In this document: in pieces, positions 3,707-56,161 of the stretch
Layout: every line of letters starts with the position of its first letter
Numbering within the stretch: position 1 is the stretch's first letter
Sequence record: OL960573.1
Strand: one strand, 5' to 3'
Source of the DNA: Escherichia phage vB_EcoS_SA126VB
DNA length: 61,753 nucleotides
Made by a program: the position numbers and the translations under genes
Notes under the pieces: model-generated
What the model was told of the DNA's origin: nothing
The model's database searches: none
Seen by the model: only the letters and a program-made list of their open reading frames with translations

Positions 3707-4579
3707 ATGAAAAAGAGTTCTGTAGCTATTAGTGTTGGTATGGCTTTAATTAATCCACGCGCTCGCGGTGAAGGTGATGTGGAACTGGAATACGAATATG
3801 CATCTGCGGAAGAGATCCCGGCAGAGTTTGCAACTCTTTACGCAGAGCAGGGCGGTAAATACGTTCTTGCAAAAGTTAAAGGTGTAGCCCCTGCTGATAG
3901 CGTTCGTCGTCTGGAAAGTGCGTTAGCTAAAGAACGTAACGACCATCGTCAGGTGAAGCAACAGATTAGCGCACTTGGGCGTCCGGTTGAAGAAGTCCTT
4001 GCGGACCTTGATCGTATCCCTCAACTGGAAGCTGCCGCTAACGGTAAAGGTACTCCGGAAGACATCGAAAAGATGGTTAAAGCCCGTCTTGCTCCGCTCG
4101 AGCGTCAATTACAAACTGTAGCAGCTGAACGCGATTCCGTTAAGCAGGAAATTGAAGGCTACCGCACTCGCGAAACTAAAGCGAAAATTAAAGACGCAGT
4201 TATTGCTGCTGCATCCGGTGCTAAGCTGCGTCCGTCTGCTATCGAAGATGCGGTGACTTATGCACAGTTGCAAATGACCGTCGACGAGAACGGCAATGTG
4301 GTTACGAAAGATGGGGCTGGTGTAACTCCATACCTGACTCCGGCTGATTGGCTGAACGAAATCCTTCCGAAACGTCCGCACTGGGTTGAAGGATCTGCTG
4401 GTGGCGGTGCGTCTGGTCCGGGCGCTGGCGGTCATCACGGTGAAGACCCATACAGTCACGACGGTTGGAACATCTCTAAGCAGATGAATCTCTGGAAAAC
4501 TAATCAATCTTTAGCTAAACGCTTAGCTGAAAAGAATGGCGTAGACCCGCTGAAGCCTGTACGTCCTGCTAAGAAATAA
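3707..4579 (+). CDS. putative scaffolding protein
   Basis: 290 aa, charged helical sequence between portal and major capsid genes; GGAGA RBS. Confidence 0.5.
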   Translation: MKKSSVAISVGMALINPRARGEGDVELEYEYASAEEIPAEFATLYAEQGGKYVLAKVKGVAPADSVRRLESALAKERNDHRQVKQQISALGRPVEEVLADLDRIPQLEAAANGKGTPEDIEKMVKARLAPLERQLQTVAAERDSVKQEIEGYRTRETKAKIKDAVIAAASGAKLRPSAIEDAVTYAQLQMTVDENGNVVTKDGAGVTPYLTPADWLNEILPKRPHWVEGSAGGGASGPGAGGHHGEDPYSHDGWNISKQMNLWKTNQSLAKRLAEKNGVDPLKPVRPAKK

Positions 4580-27047: not shown

Positions 27048-29033
27048 TTAGGCGTATCCCATGTCTTCGAGATACTTCTCTGCTTTAGCTATATAAGCAT
27101 CATAATCTATGTCGTCCGGTATTTTATCCGGTAGCGTCATGATTGGGACACCTCCCGCGCTACCAGCTACACGGTTGCCCGAGTTAGCATAGATTATTTC
27201 GGGAGTTTCTTCATTGGTGCTTAAATACCAGCGTACAACCTTACCCAAAAATTCGCCATTCCATACCGCGCCGCCTTTTACTGCACGTAGGATAATGAAT
27301 TTTCTAATATCGTTGCAATTGCGTATAGTACGAGAAACAGGCGTACCGTGGGCCAAACATTCACATACAGCTTCCATAATAATTTCACCAGTACAGTTCT
27401 TTTGAAGCCCTGTTTTCGCGAACCAGCCTTTACGTTTAATTTCAACATTTCCTTCCTCATCAGGTTCTTTTACTGCAACATAGTTGTTGACGTTAGCACT
27501 GTACAGCTTGTCATAGTAGTTGGATTCCATTTTAAAACCTGTTACGGATTCCCACCACTTAATCATGTTATCAACGAAATCCTGCATGTGGTCAGGGTAC
27601 TTAACCACAATGCCATCCGTGTTAGCTGAAATTACTTTAACACCGTTCAGCTCAAACGCTTCAATAAGCATTAACAGAGATAGCTGTCCTGTGATAGTTA
27701 CCTGTATCAACAATTGCGGCGCGTACAATACAGACCACATTGAACCCAATTTACCGAACGATCCGTTGATTACGATCTTCAGCGTGTTGGCTGTGTTCTT
27801 GTCTCCTGAGTGCTTAGCCGCAATACGACGGTCTACAATGCTTTTATAAACACGAAGGAACGCTGGTCCCAACTGCTCAGGGTATAAGCCCTGATTAAGA
27901 ATAATTGAAGGGTAATAGGACGTTACGTCAATGTCTCGCTTCTTAATACCTGGCTCTTTACCGTGACCAGCACATTCTTCAGAGCTGTGTAGCCCACCGA
28001 TACCCATACGGTAGACACCGTCCGCAATCTTGATCTCCAGACCTGTTAAGGCTGGGGGCAAGCTAATGCCACCGTTATCGCTAACAACAAAGCGGCAGTC
28101 GCGAACAATATCCAAAACACTATTCATCAGAGGTGTTTGAAAACGAATAAAGTCCGGTATGTTATACGCATACTTTGTTCCAGGATAAACTTGGGGACGC
28201 TGCGGACGCACACCAGTTAACGCTTGAATTTCGTGTTTAATTACGTCTTCTGCAATCTGCGCATCAGAACGTGAACGCAGATCCACACCGTATTCTTGCG
28301 ACATAATTTCACGAAGATGTAAAGGTTCCTGTAATGCAATAAAACATTCTTCCGTCTGTACAAGGTCGTTAATACAGTACCAGCGTACAATAAGCATCTG
28401 GTCCTGCGTCAACATTGTATTTGGCTTGAACGGTAAATCCTGCATACGGCGAGTATGTACACGTCCGCCATATTGTTTCAAACCACCAGATCCAGGCAGA
28501 ACTTCCATAATATCAATGTGGTTAACGTTCTGCATACGCTTGAGACGGTAACTTTTCAATACATCCGAAGGACGCCAATCTTCAACGATTATCTTATCGG
28601 TTGCGTCTTTAAGCTGCGCATTAGAACAGCCGTTAAGCGCAAGCGTAGCAATGGTCATATCGTAACCGTTACCGTTAAAGCTCACGATAAGGAAGTTTGT
28701 CATTACCCAGTTAAGTAGCAAGCAATTCAAACTACAACCGTGATACATTTCGAAGTAGACAACTTTCTTAGTCCTTACTCCGCGGAATGCGATCAAGAAG
28801 TAGTTTGAATAACATTCAATATCATATACAAGCGGTTCGCGGTTAATCCATGCTTGAATAAGTTCATCCTGTGTGTACAGGTTGTATTGGAAGTTCCGCG
28901 CTTCCTCAAGATTAGGCAAATAATCCGGGCGCTCCCAAGTGCGCTCCGGCGGTAAACGTTTAACTTTTTCTTTCTTTGCTTTTGGCTCAGGCGGTAAGTC
29001 CTGCCAAAAGAAACCAATAGCATCTGTCCGCAT
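27048..29033 (-). CDS. DNA polymerase, family B (compact, with 3'-5' exonuclease motifs)
   Basis: Exo motifs YDIECYS, FNGNGYD, YCINDL; polymerase motifs DVTSYYPSII (A), KIVINGSFGK (B), SANTDGIVV (C); ATG 29033 overlaps upstream stop (TAATG), GGAGAA RBS; track start 29087 is TTG. Confidence 0.75.
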   Translation of the reverse strand: MRTDAIGFFWQDLPPEPKAKKEKVKRLPPERTWERPDYLPNLEEARNFQYNLYTQDELIQAWINREPLVYDIECYSNYFLIAFRGVRTKKVVYFEMYHGCSLNCLLLNWVMTNFLIVSFNGNGYDMTIATLALNGCSNAQLKDATDKIIVEDWRPSDVLKSYRLKRMQNVNHIDIMEVLPGSGGLKQYGGRVHTRRMQDLPFKPNTMLTQDQMLIVRWYCINDLVQTEECFIALQEPLHLREIMSQEYGVDLRSRSDAQIAEDVIKHEIQALTGVRPQRPQVYPGTKYAYNIPDFIRFQTPLMNSVLDIVRDCRFVVSDNGGISLPPALTGLEIKIADGVYRMGIGGLHSSEECAGHGKEPGIKKRDIDVTSYYPSIILNQGLYPEQLGPAFLRVYKSIVDRRIAAKHSGDKNTANTLKIVINGSFGKLGSMWSVLYAPQLLIQVTITGQLSLLMLIEAFELNGVKVISANTDGIVVKYPDHMQDFVDNMIKWWESVTGFKMESNYYDKLYSANVNNYVAVKEPDEEGNVEIKRKGWFAKTGLQKNCTGEIIMEAVCECLAHGTPVSRTIRNCNDIRKFIILRAVKGGAVWNGEFLGKVVRWYLSTNEETPEIIYANSGNRVAGSAGGVPIMTLPDKIPDDIDYDAYIAKAEKYLEDMGYA

Positions 29034-48214: not shown

Positions 48215-48246
48215 CAATAAAGGGCCGAAAGGCCCTTTATTTATTT
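48215..48246 (+). terminator. rho-independent terminator
   Basis: AAAGGGCC-gaaa-GGCCCTTT followed by ATTTATTT; overlaps stop of leftward primase gene. Confidence 0.65.
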
Positions 48247-50577
48247 GCTTAAGTCCTTGAAAACACTCTCAATCGACTCGTCTATATACCAACCCAATCC
48301 CCTGAAATTACGCTTCAACGCATCTTCACGCGTGACTGGAACGAGCGCGCCCATATCTACAAGTTGTTTGATAGTAAGGTCTGTTGCAGTACCTGCTCCC
48401 ATCCTGTGATTCTTGAATGCTGCCAGACCGTATGTCCTGCGTGTGATAGTTGCCTTCGGGATAATACCGTCAACGCGCAGCTCCTTACGATCACATGCAA
48501 TCTTACCGCCAAGATAGTCTTTGCAGACCTGGCAAATAGCCTTCACGCGCGTTTCATCATCACCACCAATAGTACCTTTTTCCCATGCGTTGATCATGAT
48601 GTCCTGCCCATGCGTAACAAAATCTACCGCCCATTGCATGTGATTGGGCTGAACGACAGGATTGATCCAGTTTTCCCCTACCGCTAGCAGGGACGCAAGG
48701 CGCAGAGCTTTAAGGTGCGCACGGTTCCACGGCTGACGAATAGCTTCGTCTTTAGTTGCGTTAATGTGTTCATCACACAACAAGTTAAACTCCCGCTCAA
48801 TCCTTGCAGCTTCCGGGCTTAACTGGACGGTGACGGTCTGGAACTTCGCCATTGTTACTAACGTGTGGTTAACAAGATGGCACACCATATCCTTTAATTG
48901 CTGGGGCATTGTGATTTCAGGATTTTCGTTTGCAGGAACACGATCCCCTTCATATTGCACAATGTGGAAACGGGACAAGAAACCGTCTTCCATCATTTCA
49001 CGTGTTAACGCTTCAAAGAATGTGTCCGGTGTTGTTTCGCCCAGCACGCTGAACGCCACCCCTTCCATCGTCTTGGTATTATTAGCCTTATCAGAATATC
49101 CAATACCGCCAACAACATCCATCGCACCAGATTTTTGATACACATCTGTAATAGTTTGCTTCAGGGTATAGTTCGCAGTACCAGGCTGAGCTGTCGCCAT
49201 ACCTTTAATGGTTTTACCAAACTCACCGTTAATATTCACAAACGAAGTATGATCCGCAAAACTTTTACGCAAAGCAGGACCGGAAGCATAGTTAGTCATG
49301 TCTACAAATTCATGCACTTGCGGCAATTGCTCGCCTACCTGCTTACAAATATAGCTGGGTCCAGCGTGAAGCATTTCTTTACCCACACCTGATCGGGCAA
49401 TAAGGACAAAGTAACCGTTCAGCCCTGTGTTGGTGATAGTATTCCACACCTTGCCACATACGCCGGATAAGAATGCTAAAGATGCAGTGATTGCAATTTC
49501 TTTCACCGGACGCTGCGATGCTTTGTAGATATACTTCGCAAGCTCTCCAGCAAGTCCCGGCGGCCATTCAATAGCGGTTGCATCAATGGACGTGCTTTCT
49601 GCAACTACTATTTCACCGGACGGGCTGACTGTGGTTACAGGCATTTCCGTTACCTGCTGCATTGCACTGTGTGCAGCTTGCATACGGGCAGCGTAATCCC
49701 GCGCCAGCGCCGCTACGTTTTCCTGGGCAATACGCTCACGCTCCATACGACCGCGGCACATGCGCAAACAACGGTCAATATGAACATTGTTCTTATTAGC
49801 CTTCTCACGTTTGCCCAGTGCACTGTAACGGAACAGACGGCGACATTGCTCATTACTTTCTGTGTAGAATGCATACATAGAAATAAGAGCAAGATCTGCT
49901 TCAGACTGGGAAGGGAATCCCATTTCAACCCATTCGCCATTGAATAGGCGTGCATACTTGTCCCCGTTGTCCGCTTCAAGTGCACGCTGGTGAATAGTTG
50001 CATCGTCTTCTACCGGATCTTTTTCTACCAGTTCAATTTCATATGTCTTGCGCTGAAGATCAATTTCATTCACAAGCATAGTAAGATAATGATCGCGTTC
50101 AGCAACTGGTTTGTTGTAAACGGGATTACCTGTGCAGATAATAAAACGCTCCTGACTATAAACCTCGACACCATCACGTCGACGACCTTTACCGATGTTA
50201 CCTCTTAACCACAGGTGAACACCCAAGCCTGAGCGACTTACTTCGGTGTAAGTATCGAACGCAGTCATGATCTGTTCGAAGCGGCGCAACTGTTCCGGCG
50301 TTGTGTGCTTCTTGGGATCCGGTTCATTGGTTGCGTTCTTCACATCCAGGTCGATGCAGGTGAACGGGTCTTGCGCAGTAAGCACAAAGCCAATATAAGG
50401 TTTGTTGAAATGAGCGGCGCAACCTTTGGCAGCTTCAAAAGTCATTAGCATATCCGGATCGGTAACGTCCGCCGCCATCAAACGTCCGATATCGTTGTCC
50501 CATACGAGCGGCTTTTTGTCCGTATCGGCGACCGCCCATTGTGGGAAAGCTTTAATCTCAGCGGGAAACAATTCCAT
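48241..50577 (-). CDS. replication protein with primase-polymerase (PrimPol)-like N-terminal domain
   Basis: 778 aa; N-terminal YIGFVLTAQDPFTCIDLD...GLGVHLWLRG..GVEVYSQERFIICTG resembles bifunctional primase/polymerase domains; central P-loop-like ARSGVGKE. Confidence 0.55.
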   Translation of the reverse strand: MELFPAEIKAFPQWAVADTDKKPLVWDNDIGRLMAADVTDPDMLMTFEAAKGCAAHFNKPYIGFVLTAQDPFTCIDLDVKNATNEPDPKKHTTPEQLRRFEQIMTAFDTYTEVSRSGLGVHLWLRGNIGKGRRRDGVEVYSQERFIICTGNPVYNKPVAERDHYLTMLVNEIDLQRKTYEIELVEKDPVEDDATIHQRALEADNGDKYARLFNGEWVEMGFPSQSEADLALISMYAFYTESNEQCRRLFRYSALGKREKANKNNVHIDRCLRMCRGRMERERIAQENVAALARDYAARMQAAHSAMQQVTEMPVTTVSPSGEIVVAESTSIDATAIEWPPGLAGELAKYIYKASQRPVKEIAITASLAFLSGVCGKVWNTITNTGLNGYFVLIARSGVGKEMLHAGPSYICKQVGEQLPQVHEFVDMTNYASGPALRKSFADHTSFVNINGEFGKTIKGMATAQPGTANYTLKQTITDVYQKSGAMDVVGGIGYSDKANNTKTMEGVAFSVLGETTPDTFFEALTREMMEDGFLSRFHIVQYEGDRVPANENPEITMPQQLKDMVCHLVNHTLVTMAKFQTVTVQLSPEAARIEREFNLLCDEHINATKDEAIRQPWNRAHLKALRLASLLAVGENWINPVVQPNHMQWAVDFVTHGQDIMINAWEKGTIGGDDETRVKAICQVCKDYLGGKIACDRKELRVDGIIPKATITRRTYGLAAFKNHRMGAGTATDLTIKQLVDMGALVPVTREDALKRNFRGLGWYIDESIESVFKDLSK

Positions 50578-50583
50578 ATTTAA

Positions 50584-50787
50584 TTAAGACCTCCGACGCT
50601 TATCGCCTTGCATCTTTTCCAGGACGGGTTCTGCTAATGAACGTTTATAGATGTACACGCTACCGATTTTAATAGCGCCTGGAATGCATTCGCGCATTCT
50701 GGAGAGCTTAAATTTTGAAATACCGAACTGGTTTTCAATTTCGGTAGTTGTTATATAGTTGTGATTAAATTCTTCGACGTGGGTCAT
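50584..50787 (-). CDS. small helix-turn-helix DNA-binding protein (AlpA/excisionase-like)
   Basis: 67 aa; ITTTEIENQFGISKFKLSRM..IKIGSVYIY; AAAGGAGGAG RBS. Confidence 0.45.
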   Translation of the reverse strand: MTHVEEFNHNYITTTEIENQFGISKFKLSRMRECIPGAIKIGSVYIYKRSLAEPVLEKMQGDKRRRS

Positions 50788-50848: not shown

Positions 50849-51595
50849 TTATTGGATTTCGGTTTTTTGGTACTGCATCACGATCTGAAATACCTGATCC
50901 GGTGTTCGCCCTTCGCGCAACTGTATCATCCATTCATCCAACTGTTCTAAACGTGCTTGAGCTTCGTTAATGTCCTTAAACGGCTGCCATGATACGGGGA
51001 CACAGCCATTAACACTTAGAGTAATTGATGTAGTCCCGTTTTCATACACTCTAAGCGCGCAAGTTGGCCAAACGCCACGGTTATCCCATACAGGAGGATT
51101 TTCTACAGATTTATAACTGCTATACCATTTATTGCGAAGCGATGTTCTTTCCTTATCCGTCAACGGAGCACCTTTAACCCTTTCATGCTCCTCCAGCCAA
51201 GCTTTAAATTTTGGGTCCGGTTTGCGCCCAACCTTTCCGCCTTTCCCTTTTGCATTTTCTTTAAACGCTTGTTCATATGGATCATTACCATGCGTTTTGT
51301 GCCAGTTAAACATACCGTTATAACGTGTTATCTCTTTGGCATCCAACTCATGCCCCAACTTATCGCTAACCCATGCAAGGAAATCCGCCCTCTCTTTGGC
51401 ATCCAGCTTCCCCGCTTTCTGTCTTGTAGCTTTTTTAACAGGCTGCTCCACATCTTCGTTGAAGTAATTTTCTACCATTGCAAGCGCCTGGCTTTTAGAT
51501 GGTGCACCGCGCAACCGTGAGCACTCCTGGACGATCCATGCAGCGAAGCACAACTCCTTAACCACAGTTTTAGATGCAATCATTTCTTCACTCAT
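50849..51595 (-). CDS. hypothetical protein
   Basis: 248 aa, GAGGAG RBS. Confidence 0.5.
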   Translation of the reverse strand: MSEEMIASKTVVKELCFAAWIVQECSRLRGAPSKSQALAMVENYFNEDVEQPVKKATRQKAGKLDAKERADFLAWVSDKLGHELDAKEITRYNGMFNWHKTHGNDPYEQAFKENAKGKGGKVGRKPDPKFKAWLEEHERVKGAPLTDKERTSLRNKWYSSYKSVENPPVWDNRGVWPTCALRVYENGTTSITLSVNGCVPVSWQPFKDINEAQARLEQLDEWMIQLREGRTPDQVFQIVMQYQKTEIQ

Positions 51596-51608
51596 AATAA
51601 CACTCCTC

Positions 51609-51638
51609 GTTATAAGAATAGATTTAAGCCGTCCACAA
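51609..51638 (-). promoter_or_regulatory. possible sigma70-like promoter (TTGTGG-18-TATAAC)
   Basis: Minus-strand -35 and -10 hexamers just upstream of the RBS of gene 50849-51595. Confidence 0.3.
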
Positions 51639-51697
51639 AACTTTTACAGTATCGCAAAACCTTTAAAAGTTACGTTATAAGGGAATTATATTAAAAG

Positions 51698-51917
51698 ATA
51701 GTGCTAGTGGCAATTATAGTGGCATTACTGCGTATAGTGCGCCGTTGCTGGCTTTCAATGTCCTGCCACTATAACTGCACAAACGGCTATCACTACTATT
51801 TTGTATAAAGTATAAATTTTTGGGTTTTGCGTTACGTATAAATACCCCCCTTTAAACTAAGAATTATAGTAGTAGTGGATAAACATAGTGAAATGCCACT
51901 ATCACTACTTACTATAA
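51698..51917. repeat. cluster of iteron-like repeats (TGCCACTAT / ATAGTGGCA and CACTACT units)
   Basis: TGCCACTAT at 51764 and 51894; inverted ATAGTGGCA at 51716; ATAGTGC at 51734; CACTACT at 51791 and 51904; AGTAGTG at 51871. Confidence 0.6.
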
Positions 51918-52181
51918 TTAATTTAATAAAAAATTGGGGTATCTGTACCAAAAACCTAAAACTTTCAGTCAACAGACTAAAAACGGATAGAAACTAAAAG
52001 TTAATAAGTAATAACATAAATATATATAAAATAAGGATTTATTAGTAATGTATATAGTACCTATTGGTATTATTTGAATGTTTTTGGGTCATTGTTAAAA
52101 AGTCCCAAAACTCACAAAAAGTGAACGGATGCAGATCAAAAATGAGAAGTCACGTGCTTTTGAGGGAAATTTATTGAACTA

Positions 52182-52211
52182 TTGTGATCGGAAGGTATAT
52201 CAAGCTATAAT
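52182..52211 (+). promoter_or_regulatory. near-consensus sigma70 promoter (TTGTGA-18-TATAAT) facing rightward with no obvious gene
   Basis: TTGTGA 52182-52187, TATAAT 52206-52211; adjacent to the AT-rich tract. Confidence 0.35.
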
Positions 52212-52295
52212 GCGCTTAATCGCGGGATATTGGAGGAGGACTTTATTGCGCGGTTAACCGGACCAGTAGGAGGGCTGGCCCGGAGAAGTTAGAAT

Positions 52296-52472
52296 TTATT
52301 TGCGGACGAATACAGAGCCGACAAATAATGTTGATTGAGTGGCAGCTTGCTCGATTAATTCGCCAACAAGCTGGGACTGCGTTAGAGGTTTAAGGCCTTG
52401 TTTGGCGCGTGCTTCATTTACACGGCGCTGAAGGTCTTTTAGGTATTGAGTTGCGAAGCTGTCTAATTGCAT
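52296..52472 (-). CDS. hypothetical small protein
   Basis: ATG 52472 with AGGAG RBS; longer track ORF from 52670 overlaps upstream gene. Confidence 0.3.
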   Translation of the reverse strand: MQLDSFATQYLKDLQRRVNEARAKQGLKPLTQSQLVGELIEQAATQSTLFVGSVFVRK

Positions 52473-52525
52473 TTTCGTTACTCCTAGGGCTCCCGCAGAA
52501 GCCCGTTGGTTGATGTGGTTATAGA

Positions 52526-53140
52526 TTATGCGTCCAGTCCGTTGTATTTGCGCCAGGCGTAGAACTGAATGGCAACTGTTGTCCCGTTGTAAGAAGGCAT
52601 TGCCGTTTTCATTTCTTTCAGCTCCGGCGTGCGGCCCAGTTCGGCTAAAAGTTTGTCGCCCATTGCCCACACTTCGGCGGTTTTTCCTTTCAGCGGCTTG
52701 CGAGCGCCATTTTTGAAATCACAGCGAGCAGCTTTTGCATCCTGTTTTGGCGCGGCAGCTTTTGGCTCTTCAATTTTGATTTCAGAAACCTGCGTGGCAG
52801 CTTTTGCATGTTTCATATCTTTCTCTTCCTCCTGCTCCAGAGCTTCGAGGCAGCTTTTGACGATTTCCGGATTTACCATCGGGCGCAGTACCGAGACGCT
52901 GGCAGCTGGCGCGGCGGTCGGTGCTGGGACTTTCTGCTCCGGCTGTTGCGCTTTTTTATGGTCGCGCAGCACCTGAAGCACTTCCTTCTCAACGATGTAA
53001 AAACCAATCTCGTCCTGATGGATAAGCTGTTCGTGTGCGTCGCGTGCAACCTGGCCCCAGCGGGTCTTAAGGGCGCGGCGTGCATTCGTTTTCATGGTGT
53101 AGCGCATTTTGTCCTGTTCGCGGTGGGTTACTTTAGACAT
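52526..53140 (-). CDS. hypothetical protein
   Basis: ATG 53140 with AAGGAG RBS; about 204 aa. Confidence 0.45.
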   Translation of the reverse strand: MSKVTHREQDKMRYTMKTNARRALKTRWGQVARDAHEQLIHQDEIGFYIVEKEVLQVLRDHKKAQQPEQKVPAPTAAPAASVSVLRPMVNPEIVKSCLEALEQEEEKDMKHAKAATQVSEIKIEEPKAAAPKQDAKAARCDFKNGARKPLKGKTAEVWAMGDKLLAELGRTPELKEMKTAMPSYNGTTVAIQFYAWRKYNGLDA

Positions 53141-53213
53141 GGTATAGCTCCTTTCATTAATATTAGTTTGCTTATTACTGCCCACCGTAATGATGAGCAG
53201 TGTATAAGAAAAC

Positions 53214-53462
53214 TTATTGCACGATTGCTACGAAATCGGCGGTTGCGATATCCATGCTTGCGAAAGCAACGATGCTATAGTCGGTGTCGTTGTCCGCGTT
53301 AAACGCTTTGAGGAACTGCTGTACTGCTGCTTTATGGTTAAGAGTTACGTCGACAGCGTAGTCCCAGCTATAGACTTTGCGCTTGCCAAAACCTTTAACT
53401 GCAATTCGTGCGCTTTTAGTGTTGGTTGGTGCCAAAAATTTGGTGACGATAGAAGTAGCCAT
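53214..53462 (-). CDS. hypothetical protein
   Basis: 82-aa ORF with ATG start; first gene of the leftward block. Confidence 0.4.
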   Translation of the reverse strand: MATSIVTKFLAPTNTKSARIAVKGFGKRKVYSWDYAVDVTLNHKAAVQQFLKAFNADNDTDYSIVAFASMDIATADFVAIVQ

Positions 53463-54034
53463 GATGTAATCCTCGTTTTGTTTAAGTTGACTTATTATTG
53501 CCCAGTCAGATCAACTAGGCAAGATATAAATCAACTATTTTCGCTTACATAATCCAGTGCAGCTTCGAGGAAATAGAATTCTTCCTGCTTATATAAGCTG
53601 ATGGCCCACTCCAGCTGAGCGCGAGTAAGGTGGCGATATTTGTTGTCGATGCTATAGCTGCGACCGAAGTAAATGATATTGAAGTAGTTGGACATAACGC
53701 GCCTCCAAGTGTGGTTAAGAAGTAGTACCGTGTTGCTATGGGTACATAATAGCGATGCATCGTGATATTGAATAGGCCAAAAGTGCTATTTAGAATTATT
53801 TTGCATCTAGTGAAAATTATGCTTGCATTGCATATTAGCACCAATGGCCTAACTAATATCACACGATCCGGTCTACACGCGTGCACGCATACATATAAGG
53901 CGAACCGGACCAGTTTCCACGGACTGGGAGTAGTATACCGGATCTACAGGAGCGGTTGCGCGCCCATATCCGTCCTGTAAGCTGGTCCACGAACAGGTCC
54001 AAAAAATATTTTTATAAAAAGATGCAAAAAGGTG

Positions 54035-54063
54035 TAGACATATGATCAGTCTAGCACTACTAT
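54035..54063 (+). promoter_or_regulatory. sigma70-like promoter (TAGACA-17-TACTAT) for rightward block
   Basis: Preceded by an A/T-rich UP-like tract; about 50 nt upstream of ATG 54113. Confidence 0.35.
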
Positions 54064-54112
54064 ATACACATACCGCAAGGGTACTACAAATTAACTTAAA
54101 GGGGTTTACATC

Positions 54113-54316
54113 ATGTCTATTCGTAACGTTATCTGCGTAATGGTTGCAAACAATAATTTCGGTTTCGTAGAAGGCACAGAGTATAAAATGGATCTTAAAA
54201 CTCGTTGCATTATTAAAGGTGAAGAGGAATGGCGTGCAGTAGTAGAAGACCGCGGAGATATCTACATCTATAGTTCGGATACAATGAAAACTATTGCCGT
54301 CTTCGAATTTAACTAA
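54113..54316 (+). CDS. hypothetical small protein
   Basis: 67 aa, AAAGGGG RBS. Confidence 0.4.
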   Translation: MSIRNVICVMVANNNFGFVEGTEYKMDLKTRCIIKGEEEWRAVVEDRGDIYIYSSDTMKTIAVFEFN

Positions 54317-54384
54317 GCCAACTCATACAATGGGCATTAATACAGTGCCCATTAATAAGCTAACTAATTATAACGAGGTGTATT

Positions 54385-54570
54385 ATGTCTACGAACACTG
54401 TGAAGTCTGTAAATAATAGCAACAGAACATTTAAAGTTATGTACTATGGCGAATATATCGGAGACGTTACAGCTCCCAGCCGCATCGATGCAGAAGGTTT
54501 CGTCCGCGTAGAGATGCAACTTGGAATCGCCGATTTTAGCGCCATCGTTGAACTGGTAGAGGTGTACTAA
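54385..54570 (+). CDS. hypothetical small protein
   Basis: 61 aa, GAGGTG RBS. Confidence 0.4.
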   Translation: MSTNTVKSVNNSNRTFKVMYYGEYIGDVTAPSRIDAEGFVRVEMQLGIADFSAIVELVEVY

Positions 54571-54571
54571 T

Positions 54572-54712
54572 ATGTCACGAAAATACACGCTTACACGCGC
54601 ACAGCACGCGTTATTGATTGCAGCTATGCGTGAAGAGTATGCGGCTCACGGCTGGTATAGCGCCATGATACGCGGAAAAAGTTTATATAAAGAGTTGTGT
54701 CCGCAGAAATAA
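54572..54712 (+). CDS. candidate small ORF (46 aa), below ORF-track threshold
   Basis: ATG 54572 right after previous stop, GAGGTG RBS; MSRKYTLTRAQHALLIAAMREEYAAHGWYSAMIRGKSLYKELCPQK. Confidence 0.3.
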   Translation: MSRKYTLTRAQHALLIAAMREEYAAHGWYSAMIRGKSLYKELCPQK

Positions 54713-55277
54713 GGCACACAGCAGCACCACAGCGGGCTAAAGCTCAAAGGTAATGGTAATGCATTACCAACACACAACGAGCACGTTGTACCCCACAAAG
54801 CGGCGCTAATTTCAATGCTCACAGGCTGTACGTTAACGCGTACGGCCTGCTCTGCTATATGTGCGCCATGTATATAGCCAGCTCACAATATGCATCAATA
54901 TAATGACGAATGAAATAGATTCGTTTGGAAGAATAACGGATCTTACAGTCACAGACCGGTCCAATGAGCCGACTCATAGACCCCACCTAGGATCATCAGG
55001 GTACTAATAATCACACGAGGGCGCCTTATCCATCCTGATAGTAAGTCCTTGTCTAAATCTCACCTGTCACATTCCTATCCACCTACATCCATAACCCCAC
55101 CTACCTTCTTTTTGAATATATTGCGCTCATCCTTTCTAAATATATGGATTTTGGTAGTAAATTCTGAGTCGTCAACGTATAATTCGTCTTGTAGCTGCTC
55201 CATAGCTACCATCTTTAAGCGGATGCAACCAATTTCTATCAATTCACACCTGTTTTTAGAGCATCAAGGAGGTATTT

Positions 55278-55529
55278 ATGTGTGACACCAGTGTAAGCGC
55301 TACACCCAGCACCTCCAGCAATGTGGTTACAGAGGTAAATGCAATGCGATTAGGTCCATATCGCGGCTATTATGGTCGTGCTGCATGGAATGACGCTACT
55401 CAACGTTTTGAAGGCTGGATTATCTGCCCGGAACGTGTTAAATTTCACTCCGTAAAAGAGAAAAATATCGTTCTTAATTTTCAAAAATGTGTCACTAAAT
55501 ATGTAGAGGAGCAAGAAGAATGCGTGTAG
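55278..55529 (+). CDS. hypothetical protein
   Basis: 83 aa, AAGGAGG RBS. Confidence 0.45.
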   Translation: MCDTSVSATPSTSSNVVTEVNAMRLGPYRGYYGRAAWNDATQRFEGWIICPERVKFHSVKEKNIVLNFQKCVTKYVEEQEECV

Positions 55530-55810
55530 AAGAGATTGTTGAAGGTAAAGAGTATCGTTTACTGACCGATATTGGTGGTGTTGGGTATACTCCGGATGAT
55601 GCAGCTTGTTTTAACGTCCTTCCGCAAGGTGCTATCGTGACAGTTAACAAGGTCGTTACCGATTTATACAGTGTTCATGACGGCAGATGGCCACATGCAG
55701 TTATTGTTACCTTCGGTAAAGATGGTTATGTGGACCTTGATGGCGAAGACGATACTTACGAAGTTGCGTATACAGGTCTGGTAAGTCCCAATTTCCTGGA
55801 AGAAGTATAA
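55520..55810 (+). CDS. hypothetical acidic protein
   Basis: 96 aa, GAGGAG RBS. Confidence 0.45.
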   Translation: MRVEEIVEGKEYRLLTDIGGVGYTPDDAACFNVLPQGAIVTVNKVVTDLYSVHDGRWPHAVIVTFGKDGYVDLDGEDDTYEVAYTGLVSPNFLEEV

Positions 55811-55861
55811 TTATCAATCTATAATGGGTTCTACGGAGCCCTTAATTATCTGGAGGTTGTT

Positions 55862-56161
55862 ATGCTGTATTTAGGAATGGACGAAACTGGACACGCAATT
55901 CCTTCTGTTAACAAAGAGACGCAAGTATTTACAGACTATTACGGGTCTGCTATTCCTGTAGAGCCCTGGGCCAACTTTATCGCTGTAGACGCAGACGGTA
56001 AAGTACATTGTTATGACGCCAAACCTTCTTGCTATGAATCTGGTAAGCAATGGATGCTTGGCGTATACGGTTTGCATGTGCGCTACTGCGGTGAAGTTGA
56101 CATTGAAGGTGTGGACTGGCGCGATACGTTGAAGGAGATTACTACATATGTCCACAGCTGA
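55862..56161 (+). CDS. hypothetical protein
   Basis: 99 aa, GGAGG RBS. Confidence 0.45.
   Translation: MLYLGMDETGHAIPSVNKETQVFTDYYGSAIPVEPWANFIAVDADGKVHCYDAKPSCYESGKQWMLGVYGLHVRYCGEVDIEGVDWRDTLKEITTYVHS

Follow-up and report, generated by a model that had tools for sequence, protein, structure and literature searches.

What is the function of a long gene-free stretch in the genome of Escherichia phage vB_EcoS_SA126VB (accession no. OL960573.1), a 700-bp gap (positions 51596 to 52295) lying between two leftward genes? The window, i.e., the whole stretch of DNA analyzed here, is a complete Seuratvirus genome (61,753 bp) of the subfamily Queuovirinae. Members of this subfamily (Seuratvirus and Nonagvirus) have 7-deazaguanine DNA, and the seuratviruses are virulent siphoviruses of Escherichia coli. 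Dru_SM1 is the closest deposited relative of the window, and dozens of others align to it at 92 to 95% across most of the query. A first-pass annotation of the sequence alone had proposed the gap as a candidate replication origin. Having compared it with its counterparts in related phages, we lean, with some reserve, toward another reading of the sequence: that the gap marks where unique DNA gives way to a ~3.1-kb direct terminal repeat (DTR; ~51900 to 55027) and also holds a protein-binding array placed before the replication operon.

The gap itself is as first described. It extends from the start of a leftward gene coding for a 248-aa protein (50849 to 51595) to the stop of a leftward gene coding for a 56-aa protein (52296 to 52466), and the equivalent position is gene-free over 630 to 1245 bp in all the Seuratvirus genomes examined. 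We rejected hidden small genes, as the internal open reading frames (ORFs) of 35 to 46 aa show no conservation. One ORF of 42 aa (52129 to 52257) is broken by a stop in one lineage (group C, see below), where the promoter and the downstream RNA are still identical. The features of the gap and of the predicted terminal repeat that we refer to below are as follows.

51596 to 52295, no strand: conserved noncoding gap, without a conserved ORF, at the same place in all Seuratviruses examined
51895 to 51950, no strand: predicted zone of the left DTR boundary, placed by the offset in ECP2304, by analogy with HdSG1 and HdK1, and by the mosaic breakpoints between lineages
51901 to 52100, no strand: most AT-rich and least stable DNA of the genome (22.5% GC)
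51959 to 51973, 52016 to 52044, and 52049 to 52073, no strand: invariant core blocks, identical in at least 12 of 13 phages and each unique in the genome
52171 to 52211, plus strand: sigma70 promoter (TTGTGA-18-TATAAT, 52182 to 52211) with its conserved upstream flank
52217 to 52283, plus strand: predicted short structured transcript with two hairpins (52217 to 52256 and 52258 to 52283)
54990 to 55027, plus strand: equivalent of the right DTR boundary, GGATCATCAGGGTAC...AATCACACGAGGGCGCCTT, at the record end of ECP2304

Invariant and exchangeable modules of the gap

Alignment of the gaps of Seuratvirus genomes revealed a mosaic of two modules with a breakpoint at ~51900 to 51950. The left module (~51596 to 51945) is lineage specific, with three repeat families (TGCCACTAT, ACCCTATAA, and AAGTTTTG) replacing one another, and the genomes fall into three groups by the family that they carry. 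(i) Group A, with 10 to 13 TAGTG-type units (TGCCACTAT), includes the window, SA80RD, SD04, SLUR75, phiG7, and KS_A8. (ii) Group B, with 11 to 12 CCCTAT-type units (ACCCTATAA), comprises CAjan, Seurat, slur01, and SLUR76. (iii) Group C, comprising VogelGryff, ECP2304, KS_W4, and STP-SP5, combines AAGTTTTG units with GGAATAA units; the latter occur in seven copies, one set of which lies just upstream of the invariant promoter (VogelGryff, locus L010, 2233 to 2270 and 1950 to 1964).

The right module (~51945 to 52295) is invariant across the Seuratvirus lineages. The extreme AT-richness that the first-pass annotation had ascribed to some 200 bp of the gap proved to be the extreme of the whole genome: the 13 lowest-GC 200-bp intervals all fall within 51831 to 52150, with the minimum of 22.5% GC at 51901 to 52100, and the least stable 100-bp duplex (51986 to 52085) has a nearest-neighbor free energy (dG) of -101.7 versus a genome mean of -135.3 (standard deviation [SD], 7.9), a departure of 4.3 SD. 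The tract is invariant in sequence and not merely AT-rich, which points to specific recognition rather than to meltability alone. Beyond the three core blocks within it, the promoter block at 52171 to 52211 is likewise identical in at least 12 of the 13 aligned phages and unique in the genome. The small terminase protein (TerS) is 99.5 to 100% identical across groups A, B, and C.

Terminal-repeat boundaries in related records

Three records with resolved ends, namely, those of ECP2304, HdSG1, and HdK1, put a terminal-repeat boundary in a region of this kind. The record of ECP2304, a Seuratvirus, carries an exact 3695-bp duplication at both ends. It begins 50 nt to the left of the conserved core, a position that by offset only corresponds to ~51899 of the window, and its last base aligns to position 55027, within a 336-bp gap between rightward genes. 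The nonagviruses HdSG1 and HdK1 have DTRs of 3363 and 3367 bp, respectively, and their right end (...GCCGCGGGGCGGCTC) matches base for base the physical end of Nonagvirus 9g, which was mapped by run-off sequencing at nt 28243 (PMC5567051). Their left boundaries, resting on abrupt read ends, are 3 nt apart inside a 1-kb AT-rich noncoding region that bears short repeats in both orientations and has the lowest GC content of its neighborhood, and they precede by 6 to 9 nt a GGGG motif like that at 51934 to 51937 of the window. For 9g, restriction mapping has indicated a terminal redundancy of ~3.0 to 3.2 kb, which, when counted leftward from nt 28243, ends in the analogous AT-rich region. The redundancy stays at 3.1 to 3.7 kb while the unit genome length ranges from 56.7 to 60.2 kb, and from this steadiness we infer sequence-defined ends rather than a headful limit.

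The two genera differ at the other end of the repeat. The mapped end of 9g lies in a divergent promoter region, outside the AT-rich gap, and the right end of the ECP2304 record lies ~1 kb further right. Positions 54990 to 55060 of the window are the equivalent of the right end of ECP2304, which falls between AATCACACGAGGGCGCCTT and ATCCATCC. Two ATCA...GGG...C elements precede this end and are similar in style to the 21-bp repeats found where the end of 9g was mapped; the DNA that follows it is rich in CACCT/ATCCA. A pac site of the 9g type (SRYCRCGGGRCG) was also sought and rejected, there being no meaningful match in the window. At the left boundary of ECP2304, the palindrome GGAATAATTTATTCC sits exactly at the edge of the terminal repeat (locus L017, 1397 to 1411).

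No additional contig starting at the boundary was found among 2 IMG/VR and 9 metagenome loci, the one ambiguous case being a fold-back contig (MAVE01000110.1, 3.4 kb). In this contig (3062 to 3442), ~11 nt link the promoter region, in reverse complement, to the forward core, and the forward part begins at TTCATGGGGTGTCTAGTACC, equivalent to ~51928 to 51950 of the window, i.e., inside the predicted boundary zone. The fold-back may be an artifact of assembly, or a free DNA end may have given rise to a chimera.

A repeat array and its candidate binding protein

The left module of the window holds the array, and to the left of the module lies the operon that the array would influence.

48241 to 50577, minus strand: NrS-1-like primase-polymerase/DUF3987 helicase, the replication gene of the operon that starts at the gap
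50584 to 50787, minus strand: 67-aa winged-helix (Xis/BldC/MerR-like) protein (phrog_11967), candidate repeat binder
50849 to 51595, minus strand: 248-aa protein (phrog_27223), first gene left of the gap, absent from group C
51685 to 51713, minus strand: predicted sigma70-like promoter (TTGCCA-17-TATAAT, reading from 51713 to 51685; 11/12)
51698 to 51797, plus strand: plus-oriented units of repeat cluster 1, ATAGTGCTAG (51698), CTAGTGGCAA (51704), ATAGTGGCAT (51716), and ATAGTGCGCC (51734)
51698 to 51797, inverted: further units of repeat cluster 1, CTGCCACTAT (51763) and CTATCACTAC (51787)
51798 to 51861, no strand: AT-rich spacer between the clusters (~68 bp, ~70% AT)
51862 to 51919, no strand: repeat cluster 2, an imperfect 58-bp palindrome (AATTATAGTAGTAGTG...CACTACTTACTATAATT)
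51872 and 51885 (plus strand) and 51893 and 51899 (inverted): units of repeat cluster 2
51892 to 51863, minus strand: promoter-like site in repeat cluster 2 (10/12)

Where at least six short repeats in both orientations had been reported, we found ten copies of a TAGTG/CACTA core within 51698 to 51908, which is more than chance would give. The whole 61.7 kb holds 76 such cores on both strands, a frequency from which ~0.28 would be expected in this interval, and any other 250-bp interval of the genome has at most two. The excess is weaker when the control is made stricter by training a first-order Markov model on the region itself: of 5000 simulations, 90 reached the observed count for 5-mers and 29 did so for the best 6-mer. 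The genome has four copies of TAGTGGCA, all of them in the repeat region. The units have cores of 8 to 10 bp, six in the plus orientation and four inverted, at irregular spacings (6, 12, 18, 29, 24, 85, 13, 8, and 6 nt). Across five relatives in group A the unit positions are kept, and the spacers have diverged. A second, weaker motif family, (A)AGTTTTG/CAAAAC(T), occurs at 51636 to 51660, 51822 to 51832, 51947 to 51965, and 52080 to 52120; it recurs in all lineages, also within the invariant core (CCTAAAACTTTCAG and CCCAAAACTCAC), is the dominant repeat of group C, and is similar to the TGCAAAGTTTTTGC repeats of 9g.

Sequence comparison and structure prediction indicate the 67-aa protein as the likeliest ligand of the array. 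A single-sequence AlphaFold2 (AF2) prediction gave a model (predicted local distance difference test [pLDDT] score, 85) with a strand-helix-helix-hairpin-helix order, and Foldseek searches with it recovered BldC (PDB code 6ama; probability, 0.98), RdfS (8dgl), Tn916 Xis (1y6u), RacA, and Rpp of a phage-inducible chromosomal island (PICI; 6hn7), with probabilities of 0.9 to 0.98 and E values of only ~0.1, as is usual for a domain this small. The protein has no Pfam match, and sequence similarity to the Xis, Cox, Vis, and BldC families is undetectable. Winged-helix proteins of the Xis/BldC type characteristically bind arrays of short repeats. The putative recognition helix falls into three classes (ISKFK[LM]SR[MI]R, VSRYKLCRNR, and LSRRKLCSLR), and helix class agrees with repeat family in all 22 loci readable for both, nine metagenome contigs included. 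A regulator-binding array, which the first-pass annotation had named as the alternative to an origin, gains support from this agreement. TerS can be rejected as the protein that reads these repeats, since groups with different repeat families share a nearly identical TerS.

For the other protein encoded next to the gap, the 248-aa product, we recovered only eight homologs and no Pfam, NCBIfam, or PDB sequence match; its AF2 model is poor (pLDDT, 60), and the Foldseek matches obtained with it are meaningless.

Proposed organization of the junction

These observations suggest the following organization. The right module would form the first ~350 bp of the DTR and thereby one physical end of the packaged DNA, and it may carry signals for end recognition or processing, given that neither it nor the terminase varies between lineages. 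For 9g, packaging has been proposed to begin at the other DTR boundary and to run leftward (PMC5567051). If it does so here too, the AT-rich end would be packaged last and would enter the cell first. The last-packaged end is the first to be ejected, and the inward-facing sigma70 promoter would be the first to reach the cytoplasm; in SA126VB it would make only a short hairpin RNA (~70 nt) and in relatives an HNH endonuclease or a small protein. The array of the left module would lie just outside the DTR, overlapping the promoters predicted for the replication operon, which encodes the 248-aa protein, the 67-aa protein, and the primase-helicase; there the Xis/BldC-like 67-aa protein may bind cooperatively, controlling the operon and/or shaping the DNA beside the genome end. 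What the sequences show directly are the repeats, the AT-rich tract, the pattern of conservation, the covariation, and the DTR boundaries in the records of relatives; the boundary in this phage, the binding protein, the direction of entry, and all functions are what we infer.

Several observations weigh against this organization, some of them bearing on the ends and others on the array. The window record has no terminal duplication, and ECP2304, for which the method is unpublished, is the only Seuratvirus record that carries a DTR. The sequence of ECP2304 at its left boundary is not homologous to that of the window. The authors of the 9g study took the redundancy for pac/headful packaging with imprecise termination and not for an exact DTR (PMC5567051), and those of the phiHS1 study reported that PhageTerm failed on a Seuratvirus. 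As for the array, the E values of the structural matches are high, and the 67-aa gene and the repeats are at most 1.3 kb apart, so that their covariation could be simple linkage. In phage yong3, the motif resembles that of group B (ACCCCTATA) but the helix sequence differs; in 9g, repeats of the AAGTTTTTG type occur and no homolog of the 67-aa protein is detectable; and in CAjan, no sigma70-like leftward promoter is predicted.

A possible replication origin

The alternative that survives best is the origin of the first-pass annotation, which we regard as possible but doubtful. The repeats would then be sites for an initiator (the primase-helicase or else the 67- or 248-aa protein) and the AT-rich DNA an unwinding element, with outward promoters on both sides opening the DNA via negative supercoiling or giving primer RNA; such an origin could share the region with a terminal-repeat boundary. 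The proposal was built on an array, an AT-rich tract, and a promoter that are all real. Their layout is suggestive as well: immediately upstream of the primase-helicase operon, AT-rich DNA has a repeat cluster on either side, the least stable duplex of the genome and the AT-rich unwinding-element candidate (51901 to 52100) are adjacent to the array, and divergent promoter-like sites flank the tract. Moreover, the repeat motif is found nowhere else in the genome, and the repeats change together with the adjacent genes, as origin-initiator pairs do, against an otherwise constant genome.

The details fit less well. The description of the repeats as iteron-like was not borne out, since their short cores, mixed orientation, and irregular spacing differ from the classic arrangement, in which at least three direct repeats of ~17 to 22 bp share one orientation and are helically phased. 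Of the signals typical of host origins, neither DnaA boxes and IHF sites nor 13-mers and GATC clusters show enrichment in the region, which has one DnaA box at an 8/9 match (0.64 expected) and no exact IHF site. The AT-rich tract is invariant in sequence, and it lies upstream of the conserved promoter, unlike in transcription-primed origins of the T7 or T4 type; the DNA downstream of the promoter is 46 to 56% AT. There is no recognizable initiator: the fold predicted for the 67-aa protein is that of Xis/BldC and not a known initiator fold, and the 248-aa protein is without matches and absent in group C. Finally, more distant relatives keep the pair of genes for the helix-turn-helix (HTH) 67-aa protein and the primase without such a gap.

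Cumulative GC skew, the check suggested in the first-pass annotation, does reach its minimum at 52000, ~1.7 kb from where the genes change orientation (near 53700 to 54100), and in 9g, too, the skew minimum, the lowest GC, and a noncoding region fall together. However, the curve is nearly flat there (-34 to +74 over 51600 to 56000 versus a maximum of 958), with a step local to 52000 to 52600, so that the minimum does not discriminate. The leftward genes within the predicted terminal repeat (52296 to 53695) have positive or flat plus-strand skew, and all other leftward genes (25300 to 51600) have negative skew. We found no published origin mapping for Queuovirinae, and a literature search for Seuratvirus termini, origins, or transcript maps gave nothing specific.

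Headful packaging or assembly overlap as an alternative

It is unlikely, in our view, that the duplication in ECP2304 and the ~3-kb redundancy of 9g reflect pac-initiated headful packaging or an assembler overlap, with the boundary coinciding with this kind of region by accident. The preference of the 9g authors and the PhageTerm failure cited above speak for this explanation, as does the fact that long-read assemblers can leave overlapping ends. It would have to account, however, for the agreement of the HdSG1 and HdK1 left boundaries within 3 nt, both from abrupt read ends, and for boundaries in a homologous type of region in two genera; nor would a fixed headful give so narrow a range of redundancy on unit genomes of such different lengths.

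Promoters, a predicted short RNA, and possible transcriptional control

The rightward promoter matches the consensus at 10 of 12 positions and is invariant in all 13 aligned Seuratviruses, even where both of its flanks are replaced. The first-pass annotation had called it an orphan facing no gene, which is true in this lineage only: it precedes plus-strand genes in Dru_SM1, SLUR76, STP-SP5, and locus L032. The cassette following it codes for a rightward HNH endonuclease in Dru_SM1, SLUR76/26, and one metagenome contig and for a 158-aa protein in STP-SP5, and Hafnia phage yong3 has a differently sequenced promoter at the equivalent place, serving a 74-aa gene. On this comparative evidence, i.e., its invariance and the genes downstream of it in relatives, we consider the promoter real. 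The DNA directly downstream of the invariant promoter is an insertion hot spot (52212 to 52295 in the window and 3831 to 4309, 2286 to 2740, 2190 to 2849, and 2051 to 2340 in loci L002, L011, L012, and L021, respectively), and the HNH cassette found there carries its own leader.

In the window, the promoter is followed by a predicted RNA of ~70 nt with a minimum free energy (MFE) of -30.4 kcal/mol (z = -4.0). The converging leftward operon has its 3' end at the second of the two hairpins (52258 to 52283); a hairpin is predicted there on the minus strand as well, and the annotators of SA80RD labeled it a terminator. Rfam searches of the whole window returned nothing at gathering thresholds, and a permissive scan of 51500 to 52450 returned only chance-level matches (E > 1).

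On the other side, the leftward promoter-like sites, which are missing from the first-pass annotation and are described here as stronger than the rightward promoter, coincide with the array. The -35 hexamer of the site running from 51713 to 51685 lies inside the repeat unit at 51704 to 51713, and the site faces the operon for the 248-aa, HTH, and primase proteins; in SLUR75, it is the -10 hexamer of the predicted leftward promoter that the repeats overlap. These promoters are predictions, the -10 region of the former is kept in subgroup A1 only, and none is conserved across groups.

A purely transcriptional control region, made up of a terminator for the upstream leftward operon, operators at the replication promoters for an autoregulating Xis/Cox/AlpA-like repressor or activator, and a gene for a small antisense or regulatory RNA, and without a role in ends or replication, could draw on much of this: the repeats overlapping core promoter elements, a small winged-helix protein that covaries with the repeats and is encoded in the operon that it would control, the invariant promoter with a stably folding RNA and hairpin behind it, and the conservation of the HTH-primase gene pair in Providencia and Pantoea phages. 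We nevertheless consider it quite improbable as the whole explanation, since it leaves unexplained ~200 bp of invariant AT-rich DNA (52016 to 52073 and the neighboring blocks) and the DTR boundaries of three independent records in such a region. The turnover of the leftward promoters and the lack of an Rfam match also argue against it, as does the RNA segment, which is swapped outright for gene cassettes in several relatives.

Least probable of all, and offered here only as a speculation from sequence, is a combined specificity element in which the Xis-like protein and the array at the DTR boundary would both license replication initiation in the adjacent AT-rich end of the genome and designate the concatemer junction as the place where ends are formed, with the repeat/protein classes acting like incompatibility or immunity groups among coinfecting Seuratviruses and the inward promoter supplying an opening or priming transcript.

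Comparison with known systems

The predicted junction is closest to that of the nonagviruses 9g, HdSG1, and HdK1 of the same subfamily, which have an AT-rich, repeat-bearing noncoding region ~3.1 to 3.4 kb left of the other genome end, a left DTR boundary inside it, and leftward early genes in the DTR. As far as we found, this position of the boundary is not discussed in the Nonagvirus papers. The regions of the two genera have no detectable homology (none by blastn at word size 7), the flanking gene differs in 9g, and no homolog of the 67-aa protein was found there.

The ends of T7 have a gene-free terminal repeat of 160 bp, the SRL and SRR arrays of short repeats, and inward host RNA polymerase promoters near the leading end. 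The predicted junction shares with them an exact terminal repeat, short-repeat arrays at the boundary, and strong, inward-reading sigma70 promoters a few hundred base pairs from the end that would enter first. It differs in that the repeat is ~3.1 kb with early genes in it, in that the arrays are lineage specific and covary with a putative DNA-binding protein, and in that the promoter would yield a short hairpin RNA running head-on into a leftward operon, whereas those of T7 serve early genes.

The array by itself recalls the sites of lambda Xis, the Cox boxes of P2, and the targets of Streptomyces BldC: a protein of ~70 aa with that predicted fold and 8- to 10-bp sites clustered over 100 to 200 bp, some of them on promoter elements. 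In contrast to those systems, there is no integrase or recombination site here, the sites occur in both orientations, and binding is only predicted. The lambda origin and plasmid iteron origins likewise have lineage-specific repeats by easily melted DNA near replication genes. In the origin of Staphylococcus aureus pathogenicity islands (SaPIs), two sets of short repeats flank an AT-rich segment, and the two clusters around an AT-rich spacer at 51698 to 51919 resemble this layout. Unlike these origins, the gap has no recognizable initiator, phased direct repeats, or DnaA or IHF sites, and its main AT-rich tract is invariant and inside the predicted terminal repeat. The predicted structure is best classed as a terminal-repeat junction of a known general kind, without an earlier description for Seuratvirus as far as we found.

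The Queuovirinae serve as models for DNA modification and are represented in the BASEL collection. If the boundary is where we place it, most deposited Seuratvirus genomes, that of SA126VB included, have been opened arbitrarily and lack a terminal repeat of ~3.1 kb, which would affect work on genome length, packaging, and engineering. The three repeat families, each exchanged along with its own class of winged-helix protein, offer a clean, testable module of DNA-protein specificity in a virulent phage, and the invariant promoter at the terminus provides a ready-made site for insertions, already exploited by homing endonucleases.

Neighboring genes

The record of the window starts at the small terminase gene (9 to 566). 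ARAGORN predicted no tRNA, and a search of 5,426 E. coli genomes for similarity to the host returned no match. Within the replication operon, an HNH homing endonuclease gene is inserted between the genes for the 67-aa protein and the primase in SA80RD (locus L001, 1654 to 2178), Dru_SM1 (L002, 1649 to 2173), and yong3 (L021, 3177 to 3800); in the window, which lacks this insertion, the primase follows the 67-aa gene (50584 to 50787) after 6 nt. In 9g, the product of gp26, annotated as a hypothetical protein (locus L018, 3993 to 4232), aligns with the N terminus of the Seuratvirus primase (MLELFPQEIKQYEQWAV...), and the 9g primase seems, from its sequence, to have been annotated in two pieces, whether because the gene is split, because of a frameshift, or because the sequence contains an error.

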